Assembly: GCA_964595465.1 (NCBI GenBank)
Contig: CAZQQI010000006.1
Coordinates: forward strand, 655-64,654
Direction of reading: 5' to 3'
Length of the DNA stretch: 64,000 nt
From: an uncultured Planctomycetales bacterium
GTDB taxonomy: Bacteria > Omnitrophota > Gorgyraeia > Zapsychrales > JANLHA01
The position numbers were made by a program, and so were the translations under genes. Each line of letters begins with the position of its first letter. Positions within the stretch are counted from its first letter, which is position 1. Below are positions 3,049-37,206 of this stretch, in pieces. Below the pieces are notes generated by a model that was not told the DNA's origin, made no database searches, and saw only the letters and a list, made by a program, of their open reading frames with translations.

Positions 3049-3078
3049 CGTGTATGACATTAAAGAAAGTGGTGCGAT

Positions 3079-4639: not shown

Positions 4640-4689
4640 GCGTTAGAGCAAGACGTATAAGAAATTGACCTTTCCTTATACCATAAAGG

Positions 4690-4721: not shown

Positions 4722-4732
4722 GAGCTTACTGC

Positions 4733-4762: not shown

Positions 4763-4785
4763 ACATATCCTTGAGGAGGGTAGAT

Positions 4786-6180: not shown

Positions 6181-6206
6181 GATGGTGTGCGCTGATATTC
6201 AGGCAG

Positions 6207-6234
6207 TTTTTGTGCGGCCTAACCGGCACAAAAA
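6207..6234. terminator. Bidirectional hairpin between convergent genes
   Basis: TTTTGTGC-ggcctaacc-GGCACAAAA is an inverted repeat, centred between the + gene stop at 6180 and the - gene stop at 6274. Confidence 0.35.
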
Positions 6235-6273
6235 TCCGCCGATCAGATCATATTGTTTTTATGAAAGACGTGA

Positions 6274-7416: not shown

Positions 7417-7420
7417 GGGA

Positions 7421-8110: not shown

Positions 8111-9333
8111 AAGCTTCTTATCGCCTCAATGGGTTTCAGACGGGAGGCCAGCCAGGCCGGATAAATCGATACGCAGATGCTGGTAATCAGCACCAGGGCC
8201 GTGGAGACGGTTGTGTACATGGTGTTCAGACGGGGATAAATGACAGGGTCCATATAAAATGATGACAGCGCGCTGGTAAAAATTCCTAGATCAATGCCCT
8301 GGACATGAAACAGGGCAGTCAGGGAAATGCCCAGAATGGCGCCCATTAGACTGCCGATGCATCCCAGAAAGACGGATTCCCAGGCCACCATGGTCACGAT
8401 CTGCCCCCGCTTGGTACCCAGGGCCAGCAGAATGCCGAATTCGCGTGTGCGTTCTAGAACGCCCATGAGAACGGTGTTGAGGATGCCGATCGCCACGACG
8501 ATCATGACGATAAAGACAATGACCCAGATAAAGGTATTATCAAAATCGATCCATTGTTTCATGATTGGGGATACGGTCTGCCAGGGCAATATTTCCAGAG
8601 TATCAGTGTCCAGACGGGACCGGATCAGGTCTGCCATCTCTTGTGCCCGGTCGCCGCGTTGCAGTTTCAGCGCGATTTCCGATGTTTTATCCTGCATGAC
8701 AAAAAGGTTTTCCGCGGCCCGGTGGGTGATCAGGACCAGTCCGCGGTCGATCTCTTCGACTCCGCTGTCGATCAATCCGGAAATATAATAAGCGCTCGCG
8801 GCAATGCTGCCGTCCAGGGCCTGGGACATGATTACGATCTTGTCGTCAAGGCTGACCTTCAGGCCAGCGGCCAGATCTTTGCCGATCACGATGGTGTCGT
8901 TTTCTTCCGCAGAAAGAAAATTCCCCTCGCCCAGGCTTTTGTGCAGGCTGCTGATCCGGGTTTCTTTGTCCGGGTCCACCCCCAGGATCAGGGCACCGGA
9001 AGAAGATTCTGAAGAACTGATCAGGCCCTGAGCCCGGATACGCGGAGCGGAATAGCGGACACCCTCGATCGCGCGGATCCTTTCGAGCAGAGGGGCGGGG
9101 TCCTCAATATAGGTCTCAAGTTTTTGATGTTCGTGGAATCCCCGGGCATGGATCTGAATGTGTCCGATGGACAGGGACGTGTAATTATCGATCATCTGGA
9201 AGTGGGCGCCTTCGACGAAAGACCAGATAAAGATCAGTGCGCCGAGGCCGAAACCCACCGCGGATATGGTAATGAGCGAGCGCTTGCGGTTGCGGGTGAT
9301 GTTTCGCCAAGCTATCTTAAGGAAAGTGCGCAT
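8107..9333 (-). CDS. ABC transporter permease, FtsX/LolC/LolE family
   Basis: It has an N-terminal transmembrane helix, a large periplasmic domain and three C-terminal transmembrane helices (FtsX topology). Its 4-bp overlaps with both neighbours are typical of the MacB/LolCDE type II ABC exporters. Confidence 0.8.
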   Translation of the reverse strand: MRTFLKIAWRNITRNRKRSLITISAVGFGLGALIFIWSFVEGAHFQMIDNYTSLSIGHIQIHARGFHEHQKLETYIEDPAPLLERIRAIEGVRYSAPRIRAQGLISSSESSSGALILGVDPDKETRISSLHKSLGEGNFLSAEENDTIVIGKDLAAGLKVSLDDKIVIMSQALDGSIAASAYYISGLIDSGVEEIDRGLVLITHRAAENLFVMQDKTSEIALKLQRGDRAQEMADLIRSRLDTDTLEILPWQTVSPIMKQWIDFDNTFIWVIVFIVMIVVAIGILNTVLMGVLERTREFGILLALGTKRGQIVTMVAWESVFLGCIGSLMGAILGISLTALFHVQGIDLGIFTSALSSFYMDPVIYPRLNTMYTTVSTALVLITSICVSIYPAWLASRLKPIEAIRSL

Positions 9334-9335
9334 AC

Positions 9336-10091
9336 TTAAGGAGTTCGTTTGAGATACGTCCGTGTAAAAATATTCGGTTCGATCGGGGTGTTGTATTCGA
9401 CTTGCTCGACAACGATAACGGTCTGGTGCCCCTTTTTGATCTGCGAGGTCATGGTCCAGGTCCGGGGGATCTCTCGGTCGTTGACCGGCCCGATATCGCT
9501 GTAGGTCAGGACTTTCACCAGCCGTCCCCGTTCATCATAATATTCTTCTTTGAGAGGGACCGCGTCGGACTGGCGGACCCAGAGCAGGATCTTTCCCCAT
9601 ATGACCGGGGCGTCGGGTTTGGGGTCCAGGCGGATCTTATAGGCCTCGTTTCCGCTGATGGTTTCTTGGCCGACGATCGTATGGGTGTAATCATGCACGA
9701 TACTGCTTTGTTTGACCAGGTCATCGTTAGTGAAATCGCTGCCCATCCAGGGCTGAAGCATCATAGACGGAGGGATCTTGATGATCTTCTCGACGCTGGG
9801 GAGGTAGTTCCACATTTCATTACCGATGCGCAGAGACCCGATGCCGGCTTCTTTGGCCGGGGAGAGAATGCGGATGAAGGTTTTTTCTTTATCCTGGCTC
9901 CAAACATTCAGCGTGAGCTGGCGTTCCCAGCGGGGCGTGGTAACTGTCATGCGGTAAGTTCCGGCATTGCTCTGGCCCTGCATAATATTATCAGACCGGC
10001 GGACCAGTTCTGTAGCATCCGGCGCCTGCGCGATAGCGGTTCCCGCCGTGAAAAGTATCATTAGAAAGGGAATTAATCGTTTGCCGTTCAT
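9336..10091 (-). CDS. Outer membrane lipoprotein-sorting protein, LolA-like fold (periplasmic)
   Basis: It has a signal peptide (…TAIAQA). Its size and motifs are consistent with the LolA/RseB-like 'outer membrane lipoprotein-sorting protein' family (…EMWNYLPS…QPWMGSDFTNDDL…). It is the first gene of an operon with the FtsX permease, the ABC ATPase and the outer-membrane protein. Confidence 0.55.
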   Translation of the reverse strand: MNGKRLIPFLMILFTAGTAIAQAPDATELVRRSDNIMQGQSNAGTYRMTVTTPRWERQLTLNVWSQDKEKTFIRILSPAKEAGIGSLRIGNEMWNYLPSVEKIIKIPPSMMLQPWMGSDFTNDDLVKQSSIVHDYTHTIVGQETISGNEAYKIRLDPKPDAPVIWGKILLWVRQSDAVPLKEEYYDERGRLVKVLTYSDIGPVNDREIPRTWTMTSQIKKGHQTVIVVEQVEYNTPIEPNIFTRTYLKRTP

Positions 10092-10097
10092 GGTTTG

Positions 10098-10109
10098 TAT
10101 GATATCATA
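10098..10109. promoter_or_regulatory. Perfect 12-bp palindrome TATGATATCATA in a 75-bp divergent intergenic region
   Basis: It sits between the divergent starts at 10091 (-) and 10167 (+). A -10-like TATAAT lies at 10134-10139. Confidence 0.3.
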
Positions 10110-10166
10110 AAATCAAAGCTGAGCGAACCTTTTTATAATAAAATCAATGACTTAGAGCAGTCTATC

Positions 10167-10883
10167 ATGGGTGAACAATTTTCTTTTTTGTGTGTCGATC
10201 CATCGGATCAATCCATGATGGAGCAGATCTACCGCCTCCGTTTGAGGGTGTACGGGGAAGAGTGCGGATTTATCGATCCTAAGGATTATCCCGAAGGCAT
10301 GGAACGGGATGGCTATGATGATCAGGCAGCGCATTTTGTGGCTCTGGGAGAGCCCGGAGATGTGATCGGATATTTGCGTATGATCCTTCCGGGGAAATTA
10401 CAGCTTCCTTTTGAAGAGCATTTTCCTGAGCTGCAGATCGATCCGGATATCCGTACGGCCGGCGCCTACAGCGAGATTTCCCGGCTGGTGATCAGCAAAC
10501 GCCTGCGCCGTCGTCGTCATGATGGAATATATTATGAGCCGGAATTTCAGGACCGTGTGGTCAAGGCTGAAGACGGGCAGGAATTTATGCGCCGCGCTAA
10601 ACCCATGGCATTCGGTCTGTACCGGGAGATGTATCAGGAAAGCAAGCGCCGCGGGTTGAAAGAATGGTATTCGATTATGGAAAAGACGCTTTGGATCCTG
10701 CTTAAAGTCCATGGCTTTAATTTTAAATGTGTCGGAGAAGAGGTTGATATTTTCGGCCCAGTCCGTCCGTACCGGGGAAATATTGCCGGGATTGAAGAAG
10801 AGATTCGGACTAAGCATCCGGATTTTTGGGCTTATTTTACTGGAGATTCCTCCTGGGGTGTGCAGACGTCCCGGGTTTTTTAA
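10167..10883 (+). CDS. N-acyl amino acid synthase, PEP-CTERM/exosortase-system-associated type (LuxI/GNAT-like fold)
   Basis: The first ATG is at 10167 (MGEQFSFLCV…). The upstream TTG at 10095 would leave only 3 nt to the divergent gene. The family-typical N-terminus (…EQIYRLRLRVYGEECGFID…HFVALGEPGDVIGYLRMI) matches the exosortase-associated N-acyl amino acid synthase family. Confidence 0.6.
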   Translation: MGEQFSFLCVDPSDQSMMEQIYRLRLRVYGEECGFIDPKDYPEGMERDGYDDQAAHFVALGEPGDVIGYLRMILPGKLQLPFEEHFPELQIDPDIRTAGAYSEISRLVISKRLRRRRHDGIYYEPEFQDRVVKAEDGQEFMRRAKPMAFGLYREMYQESKRRGLKEWYSIMEKTLWILLKVHGFNFKCVGEEVDIFGPVRPYRGNIAGIEEEIRTKHPDFWAYFTGDSSWGVQTSRVF

Positions 10884-10898
10884 TCTGCGGTTTTTATT

Positions 10899-13850
10899 AT
10901 GACCTTATCCTCGCGTCATATCTATCAGGCGTTTCTGGATTCCGCGGAAGCTCACCGGGAAAAAGATGCCGTCCTTTATCAGCACGGCAAAAATTTCATT
11001 TCACAGAATTATGCGTGGCTGGAACGCCGTTCCCGCATCATGGCCCGGCAATTATGCCGAAAGCATCATATTCGACCAGGCGATCGGGTGGCACTGCTTT
11101 TGGAAAATCATCCGGAATTTGCCTGGTCTTTCCTGGGGGTTCTGGCGGCGGGAGGCGTTGTTGTTCCGCTTGATGTCCAGTATTCACCAGGTCAGATCCT
11201 GCGCATCTGTGAGCATGCCGGAGCGAAAATCGTGATCTCCCAGACGTCCCTGGATTATTCTCAATCCACCAAAGGTTCACTGCAATGGATTTTCGTGAAC
11301 GATCTGTCCGGCGATGAAAATGTTCCGTCCCAGCCATTATCAGACATAGAGGTGCCGGGAGGAGACGATCTCGCGGCCCTGTTCTATACTTCCGGGACGA
11401 CCGGAGAGCCGAAGGGGGTGATGCTGACTCACAATAATCTTCTGGCCAATGTTGACGCGATCCGGAAGATTAAGGTTGCGGTTGCTGATGATGTGGTCCT
11501 TTCCATGCTGCCTCTGCATCATACCTATGCGTTTACCACGACATTACTGACGCCGCTGTTGATCGGGGCCACGATCGCGTATCCCAAAAGCATTGCTTCA
11601 TCTGATCTGATGTACTGCATTAAGCAGGCCTGTGTGACGTTAATGGTCAGTGTCCCTGAAGTCTTCAAACTTCTACACCAGGCAGTTAAAAGGCAGATGG
11701 GTTCTCTGCCGCTCATGAAGCGCGCAGTTGCCCACTATGGCGGACAGCTGGCGTTGCCTCTGCGTAAACATATGCGCGTAAACGCCGGTAAAATGATTTT
11801 TCGGGATGTGCACCGCATCTTCGGCCCCTGTCTGAGGATGATGATCTCCGGCGGGGCTAAGCTGGATGCAGAGGTCGTCCGGGATTTTTACCGCTGGGGG
11901 TTTGCCCTGATCGAAGGATATGGCCTGACCGAGACATCTCCGGTCGTGGCGTTTTCTCTGCCGGACGATGCGCGCTTTGGTTCCGTCGGGAGGCCCTTGC
12001 CGGGAGTTGAAGCCGCCCTTTACGGGACGGATGAGAAAGGGGAGGGGGAAATCATTGTCCGCGGGCCGAATGTCATGCAGGGATATTACCGCAGTCCGGA
12101 AGAAACCCGCAAGGTCTTGCGTGACGGGTGGCTGTTTACCGGAGATTTGGGATCCATCGAGGCTGACGGATCGCTGACCATTAACGGACGGAAAAATGAT
12201 ATGATCGTGCTGAGCAGCGGGGAGAATATCTATCCGGCTGAGTTGGAAGAGATCTATGCCCGGACCCCGATGATCAAAGAGATCGGTGTGTTTGCCCGCG
12301 ATCCCGTTCATGAGGGCAGAGCTCAGCAGCTGGCAGCGGTTATTGTTCCGGATATCGGATATTTTCAGGAGATAGGCGAAGTCGATATCCGCGGAAAGCT
12401 CAAATGGGAATTAGAAAATATTTTTTCTTCTCTGCCCTCATATAAGCGGCTGGCCGGTTTTGTCATTTTCCGTCAGGATCTTCCCCGCACCCGGTTGGGC
12501 AAGCTCAAACGTTTTGAACTGCCGCATATTTATACTACAATCCAATCCTCCGGGAAGCTCGAACCATCCCGGGAGGAGGCATCCGTGGATAAACAGCCGG
12601 AACTTTTAACCCACGGGCCTCAGCTGGCGCTCACGTATTTGCAGAAACGTCTGGACCGCGAGGTTTCCATGTCGGATCATATTGAATTGGACCTGGGTCT
12701 GGATTCGCTGGAGCGCATTGAGGTCTTGCTGGAGATGCAGGAGAGCCTAGGGCTGGAAGTGCCGGAAGAAGATCTGATGGCGTTTTTTTCCTGCCAGACG
12801 GTGGGCGAGCTGTTTGAACGCCTTAAGGAGCTCCTTCGCCATCAGGCCGGCGCCGGGGATAAAGACGAAGATATGACCCTGCTGACCCAAAGCGCGCTTG
12901 CCTATATCAATAAACAGCTTAATGTTTCGGCTCAGCCGCAAGATCATCTTGAGCTCGATCTGGGTTTAGATTCTCTGGGCAGGATCGAATTGCTTATGGG
13001 CCTGCAGGAGCATCTTGGTCTTGAACTGAGTGAAGACGAGGCGATGTCGTTTTTTCAGTGCCAGACCATCAGCGAACTGATGTCCCGTCTGCAGGTGGTG
13101 ATCGGAAAAGAAACCATTCATGGTCACTGGGGTGAAGTCTCCTGGGAAGATATTATGAGGCAGGACCCTTCGGAACAGAGGAAGGAATCGCTGAGGCTGA
13201 ACGGGACAGGAATTGGGGGGAAGGCACTGAATTTTTTTCTGGCGATGCTACTTAAGATGCTTTTTAAGGTATTCTTTTTATTACGTATCGAAGGGAGGGA
13301 GCGTTTGCCTGATAAGGGGCCCTATGTGATCTGCCCCAATCATACTACGTATTTGGATGCTTTGTTCGTTATGGCCGCTCTGCCGTTCCCGGTTCTTCTG
13401 CAGACCTTTTTTCTCGGCGACGATCGTTTTTTGTCTCGAGGTCCGTTGAGATACTGTCACCACGTTTTGAGGCTGATCCCGATTAAATTCACCTTTGATA
13501 TGGTCGACGCGCTGCGTACCTGTGCGTATGTTCTCAAGCATAATCGGATCGTGTGCTATTTTCCGGAAGGACAGCGCACCGTCGGTCATGAGATCGGAAA
13601 GTTTAAGAAGGGCATTGGGATTCTGCTGAAAGAGGCCGCAGTCCCGGCCGTACCGGTTTACCTTAAGGGGGGAGAGAAGGTCTGGCCTCGAGGACGCAAA
13701 TGGCCCCGGCCCGGGAGGATCCGTGTGGTGGTCGGCGAGCCGGTTTATCCTGAAACGCTGCATTTTGAATTGACCGCTCAGGAAGACCCCTATATGCGTA
13801 TCGCTGAAAAGCTGAAAGAAAAGATGAGAAACCTTAAAGATACTTATTAA
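10899..13850 (+). CDS. Four-domain fusion: acyl-AMP/CoA ligase (AMP-binding), ACP, ACP, then 1-acyl-sn-glycerol-3-phosphate acyltransferase-like (PlsC/LPLAT) domain
   Basis: The AMP-binding core motif is YTSGTTGEPKGVMLTHNN. Two phosphopantetheine attachment sites are LDLGLDSLERIE (Ser codon at 12705-12707) and LDLGLDSLGRIE (Ser codon at 12974-12976). The C-terminal acyltransferase carries the HX4D motif (CPNHTTYLDA) and FPEGQRT. Confidence 0.8.
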   Translation: MTLSSRHIYQAFLDSAEAHREKDAVLYQHGKNFISQNYAWLERRSRIMARQLCRKHHIRPGDRVALLLENHPEFAWSFLGVLAAGGVVVPLDVQYSPGQILRICEHAGAKIVISQTSLDYSQSTKGSLQWIFVNDLSGDENVPSQPLSDIEVPGGDDLAALFYTSGTTGEPKGVMLTHNNLLANVDAIRKIKVAVADDVVLSMLPLHHTYAFTTTLLTPLLIGATIAYPKSIASSDLMYCIKQACVTLMVSVPEVFKLLHQAVKRQMGSLPLMKRAVAHYGGQLALPLRKHMRVNAGKMIFRDVHRIFGPCLRMMISGGAKLDAEVVRDFYRWGFALIEGYGLTETSPVVAFSLPDDARFGSVGRPLPGVEAALYGTDEKGEGEIIVRGPNVMQGYYRSPEETRKVLRDGWLFTGDLGSIEADGSLTINGRKNDMIVLSSGENIYPAELEEIYARTPMIKEIGVFARDPVHEGRAQQLAAVIVPDIGYFQEIGEVDIRGKLKWELENIFSSLPSYKRLAGFVIFRQDLPRTRLGKLKRFELPHIYTTIQSSGKLEPSREEASVDKQPELLTHGPQLALTYLQKRLDREVSMSDHIELDLGLDSLERIEVLLEMQESLGLEVPEEDLMAFFSCQTVGELFERLKELLRHQAGAGDKDEDMTLLTQSALAYINKQLNVSAQPQDHLELDLGLDSLGRIELLMGLQEHLGLELSEDEAMSFFQCQTISELMSRLQVVIGKETIHGHWGEVSWEDIMRQDPSEQRKESLRLNGTGIGGKALNFFLAMLLKMLFKVFFLLRIEGRERLPDKGPYVICPNHTTYLDALFVMAALPFPVLLQTFFLGDDRFLSRGPLRYCHHVLRLIPIKFTFDMVDALRTCAYVLKHNRIVCYFPEGQRTVGHEIGKFKKGIGILLKEAAVPAVPVYLKGGEKVWPRGRKWPRPGRIRVVVGEPVYPETLHFELTAQEDPYMRIAEKLKEKMRNLKDTY

Positions 13851-13917
13851 TAATAATACTAATATTGAATTATAGTAAGATATGTGATATTATTAAAAAC
13901 AAAATCCTAAACAGGCG

Positions 13918-14796
13918 GTGATCATGACGACAAAATTCTCACCCGGACAGTTCTTTTCTTTGCTCCGTTCCGCAGTTCAGACCATCATTCACCATCCTCT
14001 TATCCTTTATCCTTTCACAATTTTATTTATGCTTCAGCTCTTCATTATGGAGATCCTGTTTTTTGCTCCACGCTATCCGTTATCGCAATTCTTTTCCCCG
14101 GTTATAAGCAGGCTTGCCGGAGAGCAGTTTCTGCATTATCCCTTAAATTTCATGCTTCTTAACCGCTGGTTTCAGAGTATTCAAATCCCCTTTTATCTGT
14201 TTGTGTCCTCGTTTTTTATCGGCGCTGCGGTTTACGCGATTTATTTGATCAATCGGGATGAAAACTTGAATTGGGGGAAGGTTTTCAAGAGGACGCTTAA
14301 GCAGTATATTCATTTGGTGGTAGCCGCGGCGATTTCGGTTGGTTTTGTGTATATCCTCAGCTGGCTTTATAGCCTGCTGGTGCAGCGCGCCTTGCAGATA
14401 CGCTCAACCGCGGGGATCTATTTTATGATCAAGAAGGCCGTGATCCTGGGCGCGCCCTATGCCAATTTATTATTTTCTACGTTGATCATTACTATGTTTG
14501 CGTTCGTTATTCCTATTATCATGATCGAGGGGAAAAAGGTTTTTTCAGCCTTTGCTCAAAATTTTAAGGTGCTTGGCGGGGTTTTCTGGATGTTATTCCT
14601 GGCGATGCTGGCATCCGGTTTGTTTTACCTCCCTGTCCTTTTATTGCGTTCCAACGCGGAGTGGGGCAGGAGCGTTTTTAGTCCGGAGATGTGGCAGATC
14701 CTCATGATCGCGGGTGTGGCCTTAATGCTCGTGATCGATGCCGTGCAGTATACCGCTATAACTATGACGTACTTGCTAAAAAAGGATGCGGAATGA
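13918..14796 (+). CDS. Polytopic membrane protein, function unknown
   Basis: It has about 7 predicted transmembrane helices and no recognisable catalytic motif. It overlaps the next gene by ATGA. Confidence 0.5.
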   Translation: MIMTTKFSPGQFFSLLRSAVQTIIHHPLILYPFTILFMLQLFIMEILFFAPRYPLSQFFSPVISRLAGEQFLHYPLNFMLLNRWFQSIQIPFYLFVSSFFIGAAVYAIYLINRDENLNWGKVFKRTLKQYIHLVVAAAISVGFVYILSWLYSLLVQRALQIRSTAGIYFMIKKAVILGAPYANLLFSTLIITMFAFVIPIIMIEGKKVFSAFAQNFKVLGGVFWMLFLAMLASGLFYLPVLLLRSNAEWGRSVFSPEMWQILMIAGVALMLVIDAVQYTAITMTYLLKKDAE

Positions 14797-15692
14797 AAAA
14801 GACACTTATCATCGGTTTGACGGTGCTGCTTGGATTGTTTGTGGTATTCACCGTTATGGATAAAAGCGATTATGCCCTTGAAAAAAGATTGTGGCGTGTG
14901 CAGAAGGATTTTACCGAGCTGTCGCAAGACCCTCAGTCAGCGCCGGCTGAGCAGTACGCGTCTCTTGCGCGGCGTTATCGCCGTCTGATCGAGAAATATC
15001 CGGATTCCCGTCTGGTCCCCATGATCTATCTGCAGATCAGCCGGCTTTACTTTATGCAGGAGGCCTATGACCGGGCGCGTGATATTCTGCAGGAATTGAA
15101 AGACCGATATCCTGACCGGAATGAACTCCAGGCCGAGGCTCTGCTTTATATCGGTAATGCCTATGAATCGGAAGGGGATTTTTCACAGGCAGTCAAGACC
15201 TATCAAAAGATACAGCAGCGCTATCCGCATACCGAATGGGGGATCGGCATGCCGCTGTATTTGGCTGATGTTTACTTGCGTGCCGGGAAGCTAGACGAGC
15301 ATCGGCAGGCGTTGGAAAACGCGGCCGCCTATTATCGCGGGATTGTCGCCGACGAAGGGGCGGATCTTGGGCATCAGCTTAGGGCCTACCGTTCGCTGGT
15401 GGCGGCTTACCTGGCTCAGGAAAAGTGGAATGACGCTGTTTCGGTTTTGAAAAATGCACTTTTCCGCTACGCAAAATCCGAATACCTGACGCCCCGGAGT
15501 GCGGGTGTTCTGATCCGCTCGATCGCTCAGATCAGTGTGACCCGGCTAGAGAACCCTGACCGCGCGATCGGGATTTATCAGGAGTTCATCCGTGAGCATC
15601 CGGATCACCCCTTGTCGCCTACGTTGAAGAAGCTGATCGCTGCTATGCAGCAGCAGGGCGTGACCCAAAACGGATTGCCGGAAGGCGAATAA
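14793..15692 (+). CDS. TPR repeat protein with N-terminal membrane anchor/signal
   Basis: The in-frame ATG at 14793 gives MKKTLIIGLTVLLGLFVVF… It contains multiple TPR-like helical repeats (…AEALLYIGNAYESEGDFSQAVKTYQKIQQRYP…). The ORF-track start at 14691 lies inside the previous gene. Confidence 0.6.
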   Translation: MKKTLIIGLTVLLGLFVVFTVMDKSDYALEKRLWRVQKDFTELSQDPQSAPAEQYASLARRYRRLIEKYPDSRLVPMIYLQISRLYFMQEAYDRARDILQELKDRYPDRNELQAEALLYIGNAYESEGDFSQAVKTYQKIQQRYPHTEWGIGMPLYLADVYLRAGKLDEHRQALENAAAYYRGIVADEGADLGHQLRAYRSLVAAYLAQEKWNDAVSVLKNALFRYAKSEYLTPRSAGVLIRSIAQISVTRLENPDRAIGIYQEFIREHPDHPLSPTLKKLIAAMQQQGVTQNGLPEGE

Positions 15693-15696
15693 TATT

Positions 15697-16998
15697 ATGA
15701 GTTCAGATGCCCTGCCGGATTATGTCCGACAACTTACGCAAACAGATCTTTTCAATCAGATCAGCGCGATCTGCGCCGCTGTTAATGAAGAGACGGATTC
15801 TGACGGTCTGTTAGAGGTGTCTCTCCAGCGGCTGCTGCGGCTGTTTGGTGCCCGGCGAGGATCGGTCTATATTTTCGACGAATCCCGAGAGGAATTGGTG
15901 CTGAAATCTGCTATCGGGCTGACGGTTGAAGAAGGCGATTATAAAATTAAGCGCCCGGGGGAGGGAGTGGTCGGAAAAGTTGCCGAACTCAAAAAGCCGA
16001 TCTTTGTTAAAGATATCTCCACTGACGAGCGTTTCGAAAATTATAAAGCGCGTTCAAGTTATGAGACGCCGTCGTTTTTGTGTGTTCCTCTTTTGGTTAA
16101 GGATGAACTGATCGGGGTGATCAACGTCGCGGATAAAGAATCGGGAACGCTGTTCGGCGAGGATGAACTGCAGTTGATGGATTTTCTGGCGGCTCAGATT
16201 GCACTGAATTACCGCAGGATCGCTTTATACCAAAATGTGCAGAACATTGTCGAACGTTCTCGTAAGCTCGAAGATGAACTGGGGCGGACCAGTGAAGAGC
16301 GCTCCCGTCTGAAGCGGCAGGTTGTCGTCCACGAACGTCTGGCTTCTATTGGGAAGCTGGCCGGAGGCATCGCTCATGAATTCAATAATCCGCTGGACGG
16401 AGTTATGCGCTATACACAGCTCTGTCTCCAGCAGGTCGGTGATGATGGGATCCTGCGGGGGTATTTGCTTGAGATTAAGCATGGCTTGAACCGCATGGCT
16501 AACATTGTCCGCAGTCTCCTGGCGTGTTCGCGGGGTGCGGCTCAGGGAGAAGAGAATACAATCCATCCTGAAGCGGCGATAGAGCAGGCCCTGCAGTCAA
16601 TCCAGACCGATGCTGTTCATAAAAATATTGACATAAAAATTAATGTCGACGCGGGATTGCCGGAAATGACCGATATGGGGCTGGAAAGGATTCTGGTCAA
16701 TCTCCTGCGCAACGCCGTTGAGGCTGTCGATAGCGGGGGAGAAGTAGGGGTTTCTGCCGGGTTAGAGGATGGGGGGCAGCTCGCGATCCGTATCTGGGAT
16801 GACGGTCCCGGCATCGCTGTTCCGGACGACCTTGATAAGATCTTTGAGCCGTTTTATACGACAAAGGATATTGAAAAGGGCTGCGGACTCGGGCTGACTA
16901 TTGTCGCTGAGATCGTAAAAATGTATGACGGAAAATTAACAGTCGAAAGCTATCCAGATAAAAAGACCGTATTTACTATCCGATTACCGGTCGCCTAG
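15697..16998 (+). CDS. Sensor histidine kinase, soluble, with GAF domain, HisKA and HATPase_c
   Basis: It has a GAF-like N-terminal half, the H-box HEFNNPLDG, and N/G boxes (LLRNAVEA, DDGPGI, GCGLGL). There are no transmembrane segments. Confidence 0.8.
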   Translation: MSSDALPDYVRQLTQTDLFNQISAICAAVNEETDSDGLLEVSLQRLLRLFGARRGSVYIFDESREELVLKSAIGLTVEEGDYKIKRPGEGVVGKVAELKKPIFVKDISTDERFENYKARSSYETPSFLCVPLLVKDELIGVINVADKESGTLFGEDELQLMDFLAAQIALNYRRIALYQNVQNIVERSRKLEDELGRTSEERSRLKRQVVVHERLASIGKLAGGIAHEFNNPLDGVMRYTQLCLQQVGDDGILRGYLLEIKHGLNRMANIVRSLLACSRGAAQGEENTIHPEAAIEQALQSIQTDAVHKNIDIKINVDAGLPEMTDMGLERILVNLLRNAVEAVDSGGEVGVSAGLEDGGQLAIRIWDDGPGIAVPDDLDKIFEPFYTTKDIEKGCGLGLTIVAEIVKMYDGKLTVESYPDKKTVFTIRLPVA

Positions 16999-17032
16999 TT
17001 GTTCCGGTTAGCTGCAACAGAAAGTGTGTGGT

Positions 17033-18484
17033 ATGGATAAAGAACATAAAAGCCGTTATAACGTGCTGATCGTTGATGATGAACCGCTGATCCGTGAATC
17101 ATTGTATGAATCTTTGCGTATTGACGGGTACCGTGCTCATATGGCCCCGACCGCTGAAGAGGCTATGGACATGATCCGTAAGATGGACATCTCGATCGTT
17201 TTGACTGATATGAAGCTGCCCGGACGAAGCGGCCTGGATTTAATATCCGATATTAAATTATATAACGAGGATATTGAGGTGATCCTGATCACAGGATTCG
17301 GTTCGATCGATACGGCAGTTGAAGCGATGCGTAAGGGCGCGGACGACTATATTACCAAGCCTGTGAACGACGAGGAGATCAAGCAGCGCATTGAAAAGAT
17401 CATCAATCATAAAATCGTAATGGAAGAGAACCGGCGTCTGCGTCAGCTCTTGGCAGATGCCAATCCCCGTTCCTGCGGAGAAATGCTGGGTGTCAGTGCG
17501 CCGATGCAGAAAGTGTATCACATCATCGAATCCGTGGCCAATTCCAATGCTACCATTTTGGTGACCGGGGAGAGCGGAACCGGAAAGGGTCTCGCTGCCC
17601 GGGCGATTCATGAACATGATGACTCCCGCCGGGATAAGCCGTTTGTCGAGGTCAGCTGCGGTGCCTTGTCTGAGACGCTTTTGGAAAGTGAGCTGTTCGG
17701 CCATGTTAAGGGTGCGTTTACCGGGGCGATCCGTGATAAGGAAGGGCGCTTTGAATACGCCCGTGGAGGAACAATATTCCTTGACGAGATTGACTCGTTT
17801 TCCCCAATGCTGCAGGTTAAGCTTCTCCGGGTTCTGCAGGATGGTGTTTTTGAGCGGGTGGGAGATAATGTGACGCGCAAAACCGACGCGCGCATTGTTG
17901 TCGCTACGAACAGGGATTTGCCGGAATTGGTCGAAAAGGGAGAATTCCGTGAAGACCTTTATTATCGTATCAATGTGATCGCCGTCCGCATGCCGCCGCT
18001 GAGAGAGCGTAAAGACGATCTGGAGATGCTGATTGAACATTTTGTCAATTTTTACAGTCAGAAAAACAAAAAGCAGATCAACGGCGTTTCCGATGATGTG
18101 ATCAAATTGTTCAGCCAATATCCCTGGCCGGGGAATATCCGTGAACTGGAAAATGCTATTGAGGGTGCTGTCATTATGTGCAAAGGCGATGAGATCGATC
18201 GCTGGGATATCCCGAGTTCTACAAAATTTGAACAGGCCGATCCCGGTCGGATAAAGATTGATGAAGCTGAACACGGCGGATCGGAAGAGAGCCAAGATCT
18301 TGAGGGCACGTCTTTGAAAGAGGCGATTCAGCGTCCGGAACGTGATCTGATCATTTCTGTTCTTGAAAGTTGTGATTGGAATCGAAATCAGGCTGCTGAG
18401 CGCCTGGAAATCAATCGGACGACACTCTACAATAAAATGAAAAAATACAACATCGAATTTAAAAAGCCCGGACGTTCTAAATGA
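17033..18484 (+). CDS. Sigma-54-dependent response regulator (NtrC family): receiver, AAA+ sigma-54 activator and Fis-type HTH domains
   Basis: The receiver has LIVDDEP…D. The AAA+ domain has GESGTGKGLAARAIH, the GAFTGA loop (KGAFTGA) and ESELFGH. The C-terminus is a Fis-type HTH (…AAERLEINRTTLYNKMKKY). ATG 17033 is the likely start; the ORF track's 17024 is GTG. Confidence 0.85.
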   Translation: MDKEHKSRYNVLIVDDEPLIRESLYESLRIDGYRAHMAPTAEEAMDMIRKMDISIVLTDMKLPGRSGLDLISDIKLYNEDIEVILITGFGSIDTAVEAMRKGADDYITKPVNDEEIKQRIEKIINHKIVMEENRRLRQLLADANPRSCGEMLGVSAPMQKVYHIIESVANSNATILVTGESGTGKGLAARAIHEHDDSRRDKPFVEVSCGALSETLLESELFGHVKGAFTGAIRDKEGRFEYARGGTIFLDEIDSFSPMLQVKLLRVLQDGVFERVGDNVTRKTDARIVVATNRDLPELVEKGEFREDLYYRINVIAVRMPPLRERKDDLEMLIEHFVNFYSQKNKKQINGVSDDVIKLFSQYPWPGNIRELENAIEGAVIMCKGDEIDRWDIPSSTKFEQADPGRIKIDEAEHGGSEESQDLEGTSLKEAIQRPERDLIISVLESCDWNRNQAAERLEINRTTLYNKMKKYNIEFKKPGRSK

Positions 18485-19509
18485 AGCGTTTAAACATTGA
18501 AAAATTCGCACGTCAGTATATTGACCGCGAACGCTGGGCGCCTGTTCTGTCCCGTTTTATTGAAGTTTTGAAGATAAATATGTTTGTCATTGACCGTGAG
18601 GGCCAGACGGTTATTCCGCCGGCCTCTAATGGCGGCCGCAAGGCGTTCGGTTCCCATTTATTAATGAGCGGCTTAGATAGGGGGCTGCGGGAGGAGCGCA
18701 AACGGGCGGGCCTTGGTCTTTTTGACCACTATGGTGATTATTTAGAATATACGGATCAACTGGGGTTTTCGGCATTCGCCGTGCCATTGGTGGTTGGTCG
18801 CATGCCGTTTGCTCACCTTATTGTTGGTCCAGTTTGCATGAGCCGGCGAGCGGATGCAGAGGAATGCCGGCAAAATTCGGAACGTTTGGGTATGGATCCG
18901 GATGCTGTTTGTGATGCTCTGCAGAATATCCGTGTGATGTCGCATCTTCAGCTGAAATCCGTGCTGGATCTTTTATCGTCAGTGACGCAGGAGTTTATTG
19001 TTTTGCGTTTGGAGAAAGGGGAGGCGGACGTAAAACGCCGTCCTGCCGAGAATCATCTTGGACGGCCCGTATTGCCGCAGGGCAAAGCGGGGAACGGTTT
19101 TCCACAAGAGGTTCTTACTATCGCGGCCCGTATCAGCGGGGCAGAAGCAGCGTCTTTGATGCTCTGGAGCGAGGAAGATAAGGCTCTTATTGTCGAGAGT
19201 GTTTGGGGGACGGCTCCTGGCAAGCCGGGTGCCAAGATGGGTCTGCATGATGGTATTTCAGGGCTGGTTTTGCGGCGGGGCAATGTTATGATGCTGCGCT
19301 CCGATGACGCACAGGATGATGAGGTTCGCCCGTATTTGAAGCGGCCCCAGATCCGGCAATCCGTAATCGTCCCGCTTTTCCATGAGAAACGTCCTGTTGG
19401 AGTTTTGAACGTCCACACGAAATCATCTGATAAAAATTTATTTCCTGCCGGTGACTCACTCAAATTGTTTGCCGAATCTATAAGCCCGCATTTTCATTTC
19501 ATTTCTTAA
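18481..19509 (+). CDS. Regulatory protein with C-terminal GAF domain (N-terminal PocR-like sensory region possible)
   Basis: It overlaps the response regulator stop by ATGA. The C-terminal half has a GAF-like pattern (…SLMLWSEEDKALIVESVWG…VIVPLFHEKRPVGVLNVH). Confidence 0.45.
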   Translation: MKRLNIEKFARQYIDRERWAPVLSRFIEVLKINMFVIDREGQTVIPPASNGGRKAFGSHLLMSGLDRGLREERKRAGLGLFDHYGDYLEYTDQLGFSAFAVPLVVGRMPFAHLIVGPVCMSRRADAEECRQNSERLGMDPDAVCDALQNIRVMSHLQLKSVLDLLSSVTQEFIVLRLEKGEADVKRRPAENHLGRPVLPQGKAGNGFPQEVLTIAARISGAEAASLMLWSEEDKALIVESVWGTAPGKPGAKMGLHDGISGLVLRRGNVMMLRSDDAQDDEVRPYLKRPQIRQSVIVPLFHEKRPVGVLNVHTKSSDKNLFPAGDSLKLFAESISPHFHFIS

Positions 19510-19726
19510 AAGTGGTGCGTTCCTGTTGAGCAGATTCTGATGATGTTCAAGGTCTTATCCGCCAAGATCTTAACGCATCCCCAACCAAAACAATGATCCT
19601 TGGCTTGCCATAGAACGCGGTGATCGTTGTATAAGTGTTTCACCTGACGGTGCGGCATATTTCTAGGGAAAGAGAGGGCAATGATGTTTTTCTGAGCGCA
19701 CGCCCGAAATAACAGGTATGTTTATA

Positions 19727-19740
19727 TGAGCATATGCTCA
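19727..19740. promoter_or_regulatory. Perfect 14-bp palindrome TGAGCATATGCTCA upstream of the DUF134 gene
   Basis: It lies about 60 bp upstream of an extended -10 (TTGTATAAT, 19801-19809) and the ATG at 19817. Confidence 0.3.
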
Positions 19741-19816
19741 AAATAAAGGGAGGGTTGTTTAGAGCAAAAAATCAAAAAAACCATGACAAGAGGCAGCTTT
19801 TTTGTATAATAGAAAT

Positions 19817-20272
19817 ATGAAAGCCGGACGTCCGAAAAAAGTGCGCTATATCCAACAGATGCCGAAAACGGTTCTGTTCAGTCCCCGTGGAAATCCTGGG
19901 CGTCCGGATGAAGTTGAGCTGACGATCGAGCAGTTTGAGGCGATTAAGCTTGCCGATCATCAAGGATGCAGCCAGGAACAAGGCGCGACAGCTATGAAGA
20001 TCTCCAGGGCCGCGTTTGGGCGGATATTAAGAGATGCCCGTAAACGGCTTGCTGATGCCATCGTTAACGGTAAAGCCTTAAGGATCCGTATGGGTCAGGC
20101 TCAGATCGGGGTTCGTAGACGCGATGTTTCTCTTGAAGATCTGCGTAAAGAAGTCGCTCAGTTTAAACAGCGTAATCAGGAGTTGCTTAAGGTGCTGTCT
20201 TTAGAAAAAAAGCCTGGTGAAGAAGAGTCTGGTTCGATTTCTATTGAAAGGGCGCGCAGTTTTTCCGGATAG
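19817..20272 (+). CDS. DUF134/UPF0251 family predicted DNA-binding protein
   Basis: It shows the family N-terminus GRPKK.R…P….F.P and an HTH-like …AMKISRAAFGRILRDARKRLADAIVNG. The first ATG is 19817; the ORF track's 19802 is TTG and overlaps the -10. Confidence 0.6.
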   Translation: MKAGRPKKVRYIQQMPKTVLFSPRGNPGRPDEVELTIEQFEAIKLADHQGCSQEQGATAMKISRAAFGRILRDARKRLADAIVNGKALRIRMGQAQIGVRRRDVSLEDLRKEVAQFKQRNQELLKVLSLEKKPGEEESGSISIERARSFSG

Positions 20273-20549
20273 TCTTGCTTTAGGGGTGTATAGAGAAGAT
20301 GGGGCATTGCCTGGGCCGTATTGTTTTTCTTATAATAAATGACGCTGTTCTGCATATATTACATGAAATAAGAAAGTCAGGATCACGATGGGGCTTTAAA
20401 AAAGGCCTTTTTTATTAGATTATTTTATTCCTATAATATATGTTATGTTAACTTGACAATATAATCTAACATGTTGGTGATAATAGGGTTTTGTAAAAGA
20501 ATTTTCTTTTAGGGTATTGATCAGGGTTGTGCGGCTGCTGACTGGTTGC

Positions 20550-21128
20550 CTATTTGTTCTCCACACTGGCGCTGATGATCTTTTGTTCCTGAACAGGCCG
20601 ATCTCCGGCTCCGGTTTCTACATCTTCGAGCTTTCGGACTGTATCCATGCCGTTGATAACCTTTCCGAAGATGGTATGTTTCTTGTTCAGCCAGGGTGTC
20701 GCCGCAGTCGTGATAAAGAATTGGCTGCCGTTGGTGTTGGGACCGGCATTGGCCATGGCCAGGATTCCCGGACTGTCAAAGAACAGGTCATTGCTGACCT
20801 CATCGTCAAAGGGCTTTCCCCATTTGCTTTCCCCTCCCCTGCCGGTGCCGGTGGGGTCACCGCCCTGGATCATAAAGCCTTTTATGATGCGGTGAAACGG
20901 AACACCATTATAGTATCCTTCTTCGATCAAGCTGGTGAAATTTTCTACGGCCTTTGGGGCTTCGTCTTTATAAAGTTTCAGTTCAATAGTCCCCTGGGTT
21001 GTTTCCAGAATAGCGATCGTATCCATAGTCCATTCCTCTGTACTGTAGTTGGTTTGAGCGAATATTGGTGTTTGCACTAACGCCGAAATCAAGCTGGCGA
21101 TAAATAGTCGGCTTAAGGCTTTTGTCAT
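20550..21128 (-). CDS. Peptidyl-prolyl cis-trans isomerase, cyclophilin type, periplasmic
   Basis: The signal peptide is MTKALSRLFIASLISALVQTPIFAQ, taking the start at internal ATG 21128; the ORF is open to 21191. The cyclophilin core is FHRIIKGFMIQGGDP.GTGRGG. Confidence 0.85.
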   Translation of the reverse strand: MTKALSRLFIASLISALVQTPIFAQTNYSTEEWTMDTIAILETTQGTIELKLYKDEAPKAVENFTSLIEEGYYNGVPFHRIIKGFMIQGGDPTGTGRGGESKWGKPFDDEVSNDLFFDSPGILAMANAGPNTNGSQFFITTAATPWLNKKHTIFGKVINGMDTVRKLEDVETGAGDRPVQEQKIISASVENK

Positions 21129-21209
21129 ATTTCGGTTTGTCCTTTCGTTGATGAGGATGAGGAATAATACCTGGCGTACAGACTGCAGCAAAAAAAATAT
21201 CTGTATCGT

Positions 21210-23354
21210 TTATTTTTCCTCATCGGTTTCGGGTGTTTCTGATGAGTTACTGTCTTGTTGAGGGTTGTGTTCAGCGTTTTCCTCATCAGGTGTTTCGTTC
21301 GCGCTCATGTTCTCTGAGGATTCTTCTTCTGAAGAGGATTCTTCTTCCGTAAGCTGTGGATTCTGCTGATTGAATTCTTCTTCTATCTCCTGGAATTGTT
21401 TTCCGATATCAGCAAATATGTCCTGGTTTAGATGGGGCTGATCCGGATTAGTGGCATCGGTCTGCGGGTCCTCATCAGGATTTTCCGGTATCTCCAGGTT
21501 TTTTTCAGCAGTGTCGTGAGAGGATCTATCTGTTTTTTGTTCAGCTGTCTCGGTTGCTGCGTTTTCGCTGGTATCATCCGGTGACCGGTTAACATCCGTT
21601 GTATCTGCTGCGGCTTCTTCCGGAGGGTCTTTTCGGCCAACGTCTTCTGTGTTATTTTCAGTTTCGTCCTGGGTCGGTTCAGATGTTTTATCAGGTTGAG
21701 CAGATGATTCTGCCGGTTTATTTTCTTGTTCGAGAAATTCGTCTAACGAGGATTCTATTTTACTGTTAGGTGCAGTCGAAGCCTCCTGCGATTTACTGGA
21801 CGCGGCTTGAGTATTTTCATCAGGCGTAGATTCTGAGGGTTCTTCCTGGAGCGGGTTTTTATTATTTTCATTTTCAGGAGGAGGTGTTTCACTGCTGGAT
21901 TTTTCTTTTGTTTCTTTCCAGCCGGATTCAGATGCTTGCTGTGCCGGATCAGCGGAAATCGGTTCAAATCCAGAGGAGGATTTTTGCTTTTCGTTGGAAG
22001 ATTTTTGCTTCGAAGATAGATCAGGCCTATTTTGCGTTTCAGAGATGTTGTCGCTCGGGGAATCCGTGTCATGCCCGATGCCGTTGTCCTCTATTTGCTG
22101 AGATTGCGCGCTTTTGTCTTCCTCTGTAATTTTTTGAGATGGGTCTTGTTCTTCAGACAAGTTTTGGTCTGCTGTGTGTTCGTTATCTTCAGAAGCTGCG
22201 GGTTCTGTGTCTTGGGGAGCGTTTTGTTTTTCTTTTTCGGGATCAGGAGTGTTGCCTTGATCGTTTTCTGTGTTTTTCTCGTCTAAGTGGTTTTGTTCCG
22301 GTTGATCATCTGTTTCGGCAGGAGGTTTTTGTAGGTCATTCTCTTCGTCGGATGTCTTGTCAGAATGTATGCTGTCCGTGTTCTCAGTTTTTTCTTCTGA
22401 TTGATCTGAAGAGTCAGCGGCCTCAGCAGATTCATGAGCTGCAGAGCGCTCCTCTTGTGTTTCAGCCTTCAGGGTTTCTTGATGGCTGTCAGGATGATTT
22501 TTATCATCGGGTTCTTCTTCATTATTGGGTTCTGCAGAGGTCTCTGCGGATTCCGCTTTCTCTGAAGATGGATCCTGGGAAGATGACTCCTGGGAAACTG
22601 ATTTATCGGGAGTCGATTCATCAGAAGATGATTCTGTGGGTGACGATTTCTGGTCGGAAGCCTGGCTTATGTCCTGCGATTCTTGTTCAAGTTTACGGAT
22701 TTTATCTTCCAGCAGATCGATACGGTTTTCATAGGTTTGGTTTTCCGCACGTGTTGATTTGAGGTCGGCTTCGATTTGCCGGGCGCGTTCCTTCTGGTTT
22801 TTGATCTCTTTTTCTAAAACGTCTTTTATCTTATTGAACTCTTTGCGGTGCTTTTTTTCATTTTCCAATGATTTTTCTGTTTCATTCAAGGCGGCGCACT
22901 TTTCATCATAAAGAGATTCGAGCTTCGTGCATTTCGCTTGAAGGTTATTGATCTGCTGGCGGAGATTATCGTTCTTGAGTGAGGCCTTGACCTCATCTTC
23001 CAGATTTTCGCCAGATTCATTTTGCGGTTTGATATTGTCCAGGCGCAGGGATGCTGTCCCGGCATCCTCACTGGAAATTTTATTTAAGTCCGGCTGTGAC
23101 GCACGCTTTTCTTTGATGAATAGGGTTTTGATAACCGAAAGGATGCTTTGGCTGCTTTGTGGTTTTTTTGAGGAAGGCAGCCCTGCTCTCTGCAGGACTG
23201 TATCGGGTGTTTCTTTGGGCATATCCGTCTGTTCTTGCGGCTGCCGGTTTTTTTTATTTTCATCCCAGATCAGCCACAGGACAAAACCGGCGGCGCCGAA
23301 AACAAGAAACAAAGCAATATAAAATATGATCACAGATTCCCTCCCTGTCGACAT
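21210..23354 (-). CDS. Membrane-anchored coiled-coil protein with about 450-aa acidic, Ser/Glu/Asp/Pro/Gln/Thr-rich disordered C-terminal tail
   Basis: It has an N-terminal transmembrane helix (IIFYIALFLVFGAAGFVLWLIW). Heptad-rich coiled-coil spans about residues 140-230. The rest is low-complexity acidic sequence ending ETPETDEEK. No catalytic motifs were found. Confidence 0.5.
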   Translation of the reverse strand: MSTGRESVIIFYIALFLVFGAAGFVLWLIWDENKKNRQPQEQTDMPKETPDTVLQRAGLPSSKKPQSSQSILSVIKTLFIKEKRASQPDLNKISSEDAGTASLRLDNIKPQNESGENLEDEVKASLKNDNLRQQINNLQAKCTKLESLYDEKCAALNETEKSLENEKKHRKEFNKIKDVLEKEIKNQKERARQIEADLKSTRAENQTYENRIDLLEDKIRKLEQESQDISQASDQKSSPTESSSDESTPDKSVSQESSSQDPSSEKAESAETSAEPNNEEEPDDKNHPDSHQETLKAETQEERSAAHESAEAADSSDQSEEKTENTDSIHSDKTSDEENDLQKPPAETDDQPEQNHLDEKNTENDQGNTPDPEKEKQNAPQDTEPAASEDNEHTADQNLSEEQDPSQKITEEDKSAQSQQIEDNGIGHDTDSPSDNISETQNRPDLSSKQKSSNEKQKSSSGFEPISADPAQQASESGWKETKEKSSSETPPPENENNKNPLQEEPSESTPDENTQAASSKSQEASTAPNSKIESSLDEFLEQENKPAESSAQPDKTSEPTQDETENNTEDVGRKDPPEEAAADTTDVNRSPDDTSENAATETAEQKTDRSSHDTAEKNLEIPENPDEDPQTDATNPDQPHLNQDIFADIGKQFQEIEEEFNQQNPQLTEEESSSEEESSENMSANETPDEENAEHNPQQDSNSSETPETDEEK

Positions 23355-23456
23355 GCTCTACAATAAATGTATACTCTATACTAATTTTTAGCAAAGGGGC
23401 AGCGTTTTGTCTATTGAAAAAAAGGAATTCTGCTATGTCGGTTTGGTCGTTATACG

Positions 23457-24212
23457 TTAGAGGAAATTCAGGGCTTCCTTGGGAAGGTGCTTGAGTTCGT
23501 CGCTGCCGAGAACTTTAACAGACCAGCGTAATAACTCAAGTTTGTGGATGAGTCTTTGATCCGCTTCGCTGATTTTGGCGAGCCGTTTGCGCATCAGAAA
23601 TAGCATTTTTCGCAGCATATTAAAAACGATGCGGGCTTCACGTGGACGGTTATTGCCTTCTTCTATGCTTTCTTTGACAGCATGGTAGGCTGATTGGCTT
23701 ACCGTATCGTTATAATGATCCATTTTCAGGATGAGTTTAGGGATGTATGGTTTGAAGTAACGGTAACGGTCCATTATGCATAAGGTGTGCATGGCTTCGA
23801 CCTGAATAAAAGCGGAGTCCGCCCGTTTCAGTCGATGGATGAGAGCCCGTTCAGCAAGGGTTTTTTCATGCGCGAAGATCTCCCGGCTGAATTTTTGGCG
23901 GAAGGCACGTATGGCCGCGGAAATTTTAAGATGCCCCAGAGTTTCATCTTTGATCATGGCCAGCAGGGTGTCGCGGTCTTCTTCCAGATACTTTTTTGTA
24001 TAGCCGGCGATCATCATGCCGTCGTCGAAGATAGCTGGTCCGTAATAATACGGTTCTTTACTAGGCGCGGGGGTTTCCATATGTTCGGTCTGCTCGGCGT
24101 TGACGGCAGTCGGCGGCTCGTTTTCAGCGGTGTCTTGCGCAGAAGCTGAAAAAGGAAAACATAGGAATAGAGCTAAGGCGATTAAAGCGGTGTATTTGGC
24201 GTATGTTTTCAT
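23457..24212 (-). CDS. Secreted hypothetical protein (helical repeat-like)
   Basis: It has a signal peptide (…FSASAQ) and no recognisable catalytic motifs. It overlaps the nadC start by ATGA. Confidence 0.4.
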   Translation of the reverse strand: MKTYAKYTALIALALFLCFPFSASAQDTAENEPPTAVNAEQTEHMETPAPSKEPYYYGPAIFDDGMMIAGYTKKYLEEDRDTLLAMIKDETLGHLKISAAIRAFRQKFSREIFAHEKTLAERALIHRLKRADSAFIQVEAMHTLCIMDRYRYFKPYIPKLILKMDHYNDTVSQSAYHAVKESIEEGNNRPREARIVFNMLRKMLFLMRKRLAKISEADQRLIHKLELLRWSVKVLGSDELKHLPKEALNFL

Positions 24213-37199: not shown

Positions 37200-37206
37200 G
37201 GATCTT

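Follow-up and report, generated by a model that had tools for sequence, protein, structure and literature searches.

A predicted membrane-anchored coiled-coil protein with a polyanionic disordered tail, an extreme member of an uncharacterised Omnitrophota family

The 64,000-nucleotide stretch of Omnitrophota DNA analysed here (contig CAZQQI010000006.1 of assembly GCA_964595465.1; hereafter the window) carries on its reverse strand, at positions 21210 to 23354, a gene whose product combines an N-terminal transmembrane (TM) helix, a long coiled coil and a very long, acidic and disordered tail. Judged by sequence comparison, the protein belongs to an uncharacterised family confined to Omnitrophota, in which no other member has so long or so acidic a tail, and its gene is followed by that of an exported cyclophilin. 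An earlier note on this DNA had described a single N-terminal TM helix, a heptad coiled coil behind it, a long acidic disordered tail and the lack of any enzymatic motif, and all four descriptions were borne out by the analyses reported below. Residue numbers follow the 714-residue reading frame throughout, with the ATG at 23354 as residue 1, and the structural model of the protein was built with AlphaFold2 (AF2) from a 42-sequence alignment. The gene and the parts of its product are as follows.

21210..23354, (-): longest open reading frame (ORF), 714 amino acids, uninterrupted, from the ATG at 23354
21210..23333, (-): probable coding sequence, 707 amino acids, from the GTG at 23333, seven codons inside the ATG; stop codon at 21210-21212
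23339..23345, (-): Shine-Dalgarno sequence GGGAGGG, 5 nucleotides upstream of the GTG at 23333, read from the sequence
23265..23333, (-): N-terminal TM helix, residues 8-30 (1-23 counted from the GTG), by hydropathy and AF2; predicted N-out/C-in
23178..23198, (-): juxtamembrane motif VLQRAGL, residues 53-59 (family consensus LLxRLGL), from alignments
23037..23060, (-): GTASLRLD motif, residues 99-106, within a disordered linker, from alignments
22644..23006, (-): continuous heptad coiled-coil helix, residues 117-237 (121 residues), by heptad register and AF2
22791..22844, (-): family signature KEFNKIKDVLEKEIKNQK, residues 171-188, inside the coiled coil, from alignments
21213..22643, (-): polyanionic, disordered, non-repetitive tail, residues 238-714, by composition, charge, AF2 and repeat searches
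21363..21434, (-): tail motif HLNQDIF, residues 641-647, followed by an amphipathic helix, residues 648-664, by family motif statistics and AF2

The true start is probably the GTG at 23333, giving a product of 707 amino acids, because the Shine-Dalgarno sequence lies 5 nucleotides before this codon, the homologues open straight on the TM helix (MIIFY..., MWPFY...), and both public gene calls for this stretch give 707 amino acids from this GTG. The window is identical to part of the 93.8-kb contig JBKHBP010000005.1 (GCA_046542295.1, a Candidatus Omnitrophota metagenome-assembled genome, MAG). An exact-sequence look-up of the 707-residue product returned no entry, possibly owing to valine versus methionine at position 1. 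A stretch identical to the window was also assembled from run SRR11308339. Upstream of the gene, no sigma-54 promoter was seen by eye in 23355-23456, and a promoter scan found only a weak sigma-70-like site.

Low-complexity DNA rich in A may hold long ORFs open by chance, and the opposite strand does have shadow ORFs here; the acidic part could then be an untranslated portion of an over-extended or frameshifted frame. The likelihood of such an artefact is vanishingly small, given that more than 130 homologues carry the tail in the same frame beyond the coiled coil, that the codon-position composition of the ORF is strongly periodic, and that the two independent public gene calls agree exactly. 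The artefact is refuted by the conserved C-terminal motif of the family, which is read in the correct frame at residues 641-647, 1.9 kb beyond the start codon, and the frame is thus real, as had been claimed.

Residues 8-30 form the sole hydrophobic segment of the protein (Kyte-Doolittle hydropathy 2.7), and AF2 placed a helix over residues 3-36 with a predicted local distance difference test (pLDDT) score of 80-95. Two short motifs follow the membrane helix. In a four-sequence alignment R56 of VLQRAGL and G99, T100 and A101 of GTASLRLD are invariant; in larger alignments L54 is nearly invariant and the GTASLRLD motif again appears in the consensus, while AF2 modelled a short helix at residues 50-56. 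As a side observation, LLxRLGL(E) at residues 53-59 loosely recalls the N-terminal GLGRGLxALL peptide of ParB, which stimulates ParA-type ATPases.

The coiled coil itself, from about residue 115 to 235, contains no proline or glycine and keeps one heptad register, with L, I, V, M or F at 16 of the 32 a/d positions. AF2 modelled it as a single unbroken helix over residues 117-237 (pLDDT 92-97), which would be about 18 nm long if fully helical. Inside it lies the signature of the family, near-invariant as K-E-F-N-K-V-K-D-L-L-E-K-E-I-K; the window protein has KEFNKIKDVLEKEIK at residues 171-185, which fits K-E-F-N-K-[VI]-[KR]-D-x-L-E-K-E-[IL]-K. Seven of its residues (F173, N174, K175, D178, L180, E181 and E183) are invariant in alignments of 14 and 16 sequences, and in the 42-sequence alignment all of these remain invariant save D178, which is nearly so.

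The tail runs to about 480 residues. Over residues 231-714 its net charge is -101, with E (18%), S (15%), D (10%) and Q, P, T and N (8% each) dominating the composition, so that D and E together make up 28%. Its isoelectric point is 4.05, order-promoting residues account for only 6.4%, and it falls on the disordered side of the Uversky (charge-hydropathy) plot. In keeping with this composition, AF2 gave a pLDDT of about 40 over residues 243-644 and 669-707, and 462 residues scored below 50. This acidity is no proteome-wide trait, because the protein is an outlier among the 51 ORFs of the window (z = -3.8); a halophile-type acidic proteome was rejected as its cause, since the other 50 ORFs average a net charge per residue (NCPR) of +0.011. 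The earlier note had also proposed looking for internal repeats as a sign of repeat expansion, and none emerged: Tandem Repeats Finder detected nothing in the gene beyond one 15-mer in 2.2 copies, a direct-repeat search gave families that were short and weak only, and in a self-alignment of the protein the best off-diagonal match was no better than in shuffled sequences (z = -0.9). The tail is therefore not a product of repeat expansion. Its one structured element lies near the end, where HLNQDIF, 72 residues from the C-terminus and unique within the window, precedes the helix at residues 648-664 (DIFADIGKQFQEIEEEF), which has a block-mean AF2 pLDDT of about 81 and amphipathic periodicity and also follows the motif in the closest relatives.

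Profile searches with the protein against Pfam (no family at E <= 0.1), NCBIfam (nothing above noise) and the PDB (no solved structure above noise) gave no family match, and the protein has no enzymatic domain. The NCBIfam model pepcterm_ChnLen scored 12 bits (E = 0.044), far short of its cut-off of 279, and was put down to coiled-coil similarity, and matches to ATG16, a septin coiled coil and LINE-1 ORF1 in the Pfam, NCBIfam and PDB searches were dismissed as generic coiled-coil noise. Likewise, Pfam searches with 42 relatives returned generic coiled-coil models only, for example ATG16 and MAD. A search with the full-length sequence recovered three homologues (best E = 1.2e-28); this search was saturated by low-complexity words and missed the query protein itself, and a profile of the N-terminal region was used instead. 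That profile matched 66 proteins at E <= 2.5e-24 in a set of 5.8 billion, and 311 clusters (50% identity) at E <= 1e-3, 177 of them at E <= 1e-30, among 1.84 billion representatives.

When one genome from each GTDB species was scanned, 12 loci emerged, which were labelled Candidatus Omnitrophota or, in some third-party annotation (TPA) MAGs with the same Omnitrophota synteny, 'uncultured Planctomycetales'. The latter labels on TPA MAGs that carry the Omnitrophota-specific gene block (loci L005, L009, L010, L013 and L014) are probably coarse or wrong. Across the family, the informative organism labels are all Candidatus Omnitrophota, with the exception of a 3.6-kb contig (protein P0006) assigned to Bathyarchaeia; as the Omnitrophota-specific neighbour gene lies on this contig too, it probably comes from Omnitrophota and was mis-binned. 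The source names of the family proteins are all 'hypothetical protein', apart from one 'ribonuclease E' label from JGI that is evidently spurious. A literature search directed at FtsZ brought up no paper on this family, and no paper was found that links Omnitrophota with cyclophilin.

Family members share the same blocks in the same order: the TM helix, LLxRLGL about 20-30 residues past it, GTASLRL, the heptad helix with KEFNKVKDLLEKEIK, and the tail motif. Outside this one short motif, the tails have no alignable sequence. Among the 133 members counted as full-length, on which all family statistics are based, the tails measure 61-485 residues (median 170) and are net-negative in all but one (132/133), with a median net charge of -14, a median NCPR of -0.09 and a proline content of about 14% (median) that reaches 28%. 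The tail of the window protein (485 residues, net -101) ranks first of the 133 in both length and charge. The tail motif, with the consensus F-L-[KH]-L-x-P-D-[IV]-[LF], was found in 74 of 133 tails, whereas only 8% of tails contained it after shuffling. It keeps a constant distance from the C-terminus (median 38 residues); L at -2 is kept in 70/73, P in 71/73 and D in all 73. The window protein has every feature by which members are recognised, namely the N-terminal TM helix with lysine or arginine after it and none before it, both juxtamembrane motifs, the signature and a net-negative tail with the motif (with Q for P), and it is on this evidence that we place it in the family.

The family evolves fast, because between loci its N-terminal domain is only 25-47% identical, compared with 53-69% for the neighbouring cyclophilin, 53-66% for DUF134 and 70-79% for CoxL. 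Structural coiled-coil proteins often evolve fast. The charge of the tail (net -101, 28% D and E) could also be read as that of a cation-binding or mineral-matrix protein with a role like that of MamJ or calsequestrin, whose Asp/Glu/Ser-rich tail would buffer or nucleate metal ions, and some Omnitrophota are magnetotactic. However, no magnetosome or metal-handling genes occur in the 64-kb window, the acidic repeats typical of such proteins are absent from the tail, and most family tails are mildly acidic and proline-rich, so that a strong polyanion is no family trait. We consider this explanation highly unlikely.

To place the tail relative to the membrane, we compared the charges on either side of the TM helix. 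In 127 of the 133 members no lysine or arginine precedes this helix, which usually starts at residue 1-6, and the next 20 residues hold 3.1 of them on average. According to the positive-inside rule, a flank rich in lysine and arginine stays on the cytoplasmic side. Because positive charges are missing before the helix and present after it, the protein is likely to be inserted N-out/C-in, with stalk and tail in the cytoplasm. This predicted orientation argues against a periplasmic tail, and with it against both the periplasmic brush listed among the roles in the earlier note and direct contact with the exported cyclophilin.

The opposite orientation, N-in/C-out, would put the coiled coil and the tail in the periplasm as a tether or brush across the envelope, and the tail might there be a client or partner of the co-transcribed cyclophilin. 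The gene for the latter is annotated as follows.

20550..21128, (-): exported cyclophilin, 192 amino acids with signal peptide (Pro_isomerase PF00160, E = 2.6e-54; nearest NCBIfam model PpiA)

The co-oriented cyclophilin gene downstream had been pointed out before, and we found that its product does carry an export signal (MTKALSRLFIASLISALVQTPIFA, with QT following the predicted cleavage site). Public calls for this gene differ, with 158 amino acids and no signal peptide in NCBI and 192 amino acids in Logan. The longer form, starting at 21128, is probably the right one and exported, because an in-frame signal-peptide or lipobox-like N-terminus is kept in all 15 of 15 loci. The two genes are separated by 81 nucleotides, and a scan of this gap showed nothing resembling a terminator. 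In 15 of 18 distinct loci the cyclophilin gene adjoins the family gene downstream on the same strand, with gaps of 4-81 nucleotides where measured, and in three loci (L010, L014 and L016) the cyclophilin alone was lost.

The pair belongs to a larger ancestral block, coxM-coxS-coxL-small ORF-mobA(-)-gene-cyclophilin-xdhC-PNPOx...DUF134(-)-PocR/GAF, which was seen in loci L001, L004, L008-L010 and L012-L020 and compared with window positions 19802-24212. In the clade of the window, which also includes L005-L007, coxMSL, mobA, xdhC and PNPOx are gone from the block and the gene and cyclophilin are kept. The family gene is thus independent of the molybdenum (Mo)-enzyme genes, because this clade lost them but kept it, and a link to the Mo-hydroxylase, XdhC and MobA neighbours was rejected for the same reason. 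Where present (14/18 loci), xdhC and PNPOx, whose products are of cytoplasmic type, are co-directional just downstream. The apparent operon therefore mixes cytoplasmic and exported products, and the cyclophilin adjacency is suggestive of a functional link but not decisive. Of the co-occurrence that the earlier note had proposed to check, the adjacency itself held; by itself it does not prove a functional link, as the pair sits in a larger conserved syntenic block.

For a periplasmic tail, then, speak the short gaps between the two genes and their conserved adjacency, the export signals retained by all 15 cyclophilins, the survival of the pair after the loss of the Mo-enzyme genes in the window clade, and the proline-rich tails with a motif centred on a nearly invariant proline. 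Such a protein would have its closest analogues in TolA and TonB, which likewise combine an N-terminal TM anchor with an extended helical or proline-rich spacer, a likeness that holds only if the tail is periplasmic. TolA and TonB, however, are N-in with basic N-termini and end in folded domains that bind outer-membrane partners, whereas the flanking charges predict N-out here, neither TolA domain III nor TonB_C was matched in Pfam or NCBIfam, and Pfam gave no C-terminal domain of TolA, TonB or OmpA type. The positive-inside rule opposes this orientation in 127 of the members, three loci keep the gene without an adjacent cyclophilin even though the tails of the two tabulated (L010 and L014) contain 21-24% proline, and the cytoplasmic-type genes downstream mean that co-transcription implies no shared compartment. 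On balance we regard the periplasmic arrangement as possible but doubtful; the exported cyclophilin is probably co-transcribed with the gene but would act in another compartment.

With a cytoplasmic tail, the protein resembles several known systems in part. Like ZipA, it would be bitopic, with a very short N-terminus, a TM helix, residues rich in lysine and arginine after it (N-out/C-in) and a long disordered linker, but ZipA has a globular FtsZ-binding C-terminal domain, a P/Q-rich linker and no coiled coil, and the two share no sequence similarity. The Pfam model ZipA_C matched neither the window protein nor any of the 42 members searched, and the AF2 model lacks a folded C-terminal domain. 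EzrA also has an N-terminal TM anchor followed by a long cytoplasmic coiled coil; it differs in forming a spectrin-like arch of several coiled-coil repeats and in having no long acidic disordered tail. Its Pfam profile gave no match, and AF2 showed one unbroken helix rather than repeated bundles. PopZ combines a helical oligomerisation module, an acidic disordered region rich in Pro, Glu and Asp and a short client-binding helix, but it is soluble, about 180 amino acids long and built in the reverse module order, with no homology detected and no Pfam match. HubP, FimV and TspA are single-pass proteins that recruit partners through cytoplasmic regions which are very acidic and for the most part disordered; they differ in carrying a periplasmic LysM domain, repeated acidic units and the FimV C-terminal domain, and neither LysM and FimV profiles (Pfam, NCBIfam) nor acidic repeats were found in the window protein. 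FtsB, DivIC and FtsL are proteins of about 100 amino acids, the window protein is one of 707, and the DivIC profile matched 0 of 42 members. Since the defining domains were not found with Pfam or NCBIfam, the protein is by sequence a member of none of these systems, and its resemblance to ZipA, EzrA and PopZ is one of architecture only.

One special case of a cytoplasmic scaffold would be a divisome or cytoskeletal tether analogous to ZipA or EzrA, whose tail motif would tie a filament, be it FtsZ, FtsA or another, to the membrane. The predicted topology and module order agree with those of ZipA (short N-out end, TM helix, charged region, disordered linker) and of EzrA (N-terminal TM helix, cytoplasmic coiled coil). 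ZipA is not known outside Gammaproteobacteria, and L-x-P-D-I-[LF] is not known as the FtsZ C-terminal peptide or as any other division motif. The profiles of the ZipA C-terminal domain, EzrA and DivIC match none of the 42 members, and the neighbours of the gene are housekeeping, metabolic and Mo-enzyme genes rather than those of a dcw or division cluster; indeed, no division or cell-wall genes are present within the 64-kb window. Omnitrophota do keep dcw genes as a group, with ftsZ and ftsA counted among them (PMC12283558). We judge a role in division to be quite unlikely. The three roles named in the earlier note, divisome spacer, periplasmic brush and cation-binding matrix, thus amount to a generic list of which nothing supports any entry, as there are no division genes nearby and the topology speaks against the brush.

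The reading we favour, and to which we give about an even chance, is that of a lineage-specific bitopic inner-membrane scaffold or tether. In this model, the TM helix would insert N-out/C-in, leaving all downstream residues in the cytoplasm, and the heptad helix would associate in parallel to form a coiled-coil stalk about 18 nm in length. The polyanionic chain beyond it could serve as an entropic tether, subject to repulsion from itself, from the membrane and from nucleic acids, and present the F-L-K-L-x-P-D-I-L motif (together with the amphipathic helix in the window clade) to a partner, which would be recruited to the membrane or held at a set distance from it. Selection would then act on bulk charge, disorder and the motif rather than on the tail sequence, because the tails vary freely in sequence and length yet are net-negative in nearly all members.

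Several points weigh against this scaffold or tether. The orientation is predicted from the positive-inside rule, and very short N-terminal tails, as in FtsB, can still be N-in. An exported cyclophilin directly after the gene in most loci, together with 14-25% proline in many tails, would suit a periplasmic tail. Moreover, 59 of the 133 members lack the motif under the regular expression used, although some may be truncated at contig ends, and two members, the window protein among them, have Q where 71/73 have proline.

A bolder version is that the family is a phylum-specific organising hub, either anchored in the inner membrane, where its polyanionic tether and F-L-K-L-x-P-D-I-L docking motif would position a cytoplasmic machine (a ParA/MinD-type ATPase, divisome components or a condensate), or, in the opposite topology, as a cyclophilin-serviced, envelope-spanning tether. 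We consider this unlikely; if either form were true, both the scaffold system and its docking motif would be new. Many Omnitrophota are reportedly ultra-small cells. The cell biology of this uncultured phylum of the Planctomycetes-Verrucomicrobia-Chlamydiae (PVC) group has hardly been described. The family is present throughout the phylum within a conserved gene block, and its clear set of modules (anchor, stalk, charged tether, docking motif) could serve as a handle on a lineage-specific membrane-associated complex. It would also offer a clean natural case in which selection bears on how long and how charged a disordered region is, and not on its sequence. The architecture as such is of a common type; what is new is the definition of the family, its tail motif, its likely orientation towards the cytoplasm and the history of the surrounding gene block.

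Upstream of the gene lies a second protein of lineage-restricted distribution.

23457-24212, (-): 251-amino-acid protein with signal peptide; ARM/HEAT-like alpha-solenoid (AF2 pLDDT 88)

This protein has no Pfam match and more than 174 relatives, whose informative labels are all Omnitrophota except for one probably mis-binned contig. The start of its gene overlaps the nadC stop (ATGA), and its fold matches are generic, with a best Foldseek E of 9e-3 to the armadillo region of FHOD1. It was rejected as a functional clue to the coiled-coil protein, since the adjacency is a by-product of the Mo-gene deletion in the window clade.

On the other side, window positions 18481-20272 encode a DUF134 protein and a PocR-GAF sensor beside a sigma-54 regulator; nearly all related loci have kept DUF134, and the PocR-GAF sensor is conserved in most of those that extend far enough to include it. 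Elsewhere the window carries genes of housekeeping metabolism (valS, nadC, a cimA/leuA-like gene and aspartate kinase, among others) as well as polysaccharide and PEP-CTERM genes. ORFs of 219, 461, 447 and 613 amino acids at 36540-38592, 43995-45338 and 50228-52069 have no Pfam match at E <= 1e-5 and sit among glycosyltransferase, radical-SAM/SPASM and polysaccharide-modification genes. Finally, positions 239-18484 hold a PEP-CTERM/exosortase-type cluster with a DUF3485 (EpsI-like) gene, a Bac_transf sugar transferase and three PEP-CTERM proteins (2422-4639). It also includes LolA-like, ABC and FtsX-like genes, a GNAT/autoinducer-synthase-like gene (10095-10883), a gene for a 983-amino-acid fusion of AMP-ligase, acyl carrier protein and acyltransferase (10899-13850), and genes for three proteins similar to PrsT, PrsK and PrsR, namely a TPR protein, a histidine kinase with a GAF domain and a sigma-54 response regulator.

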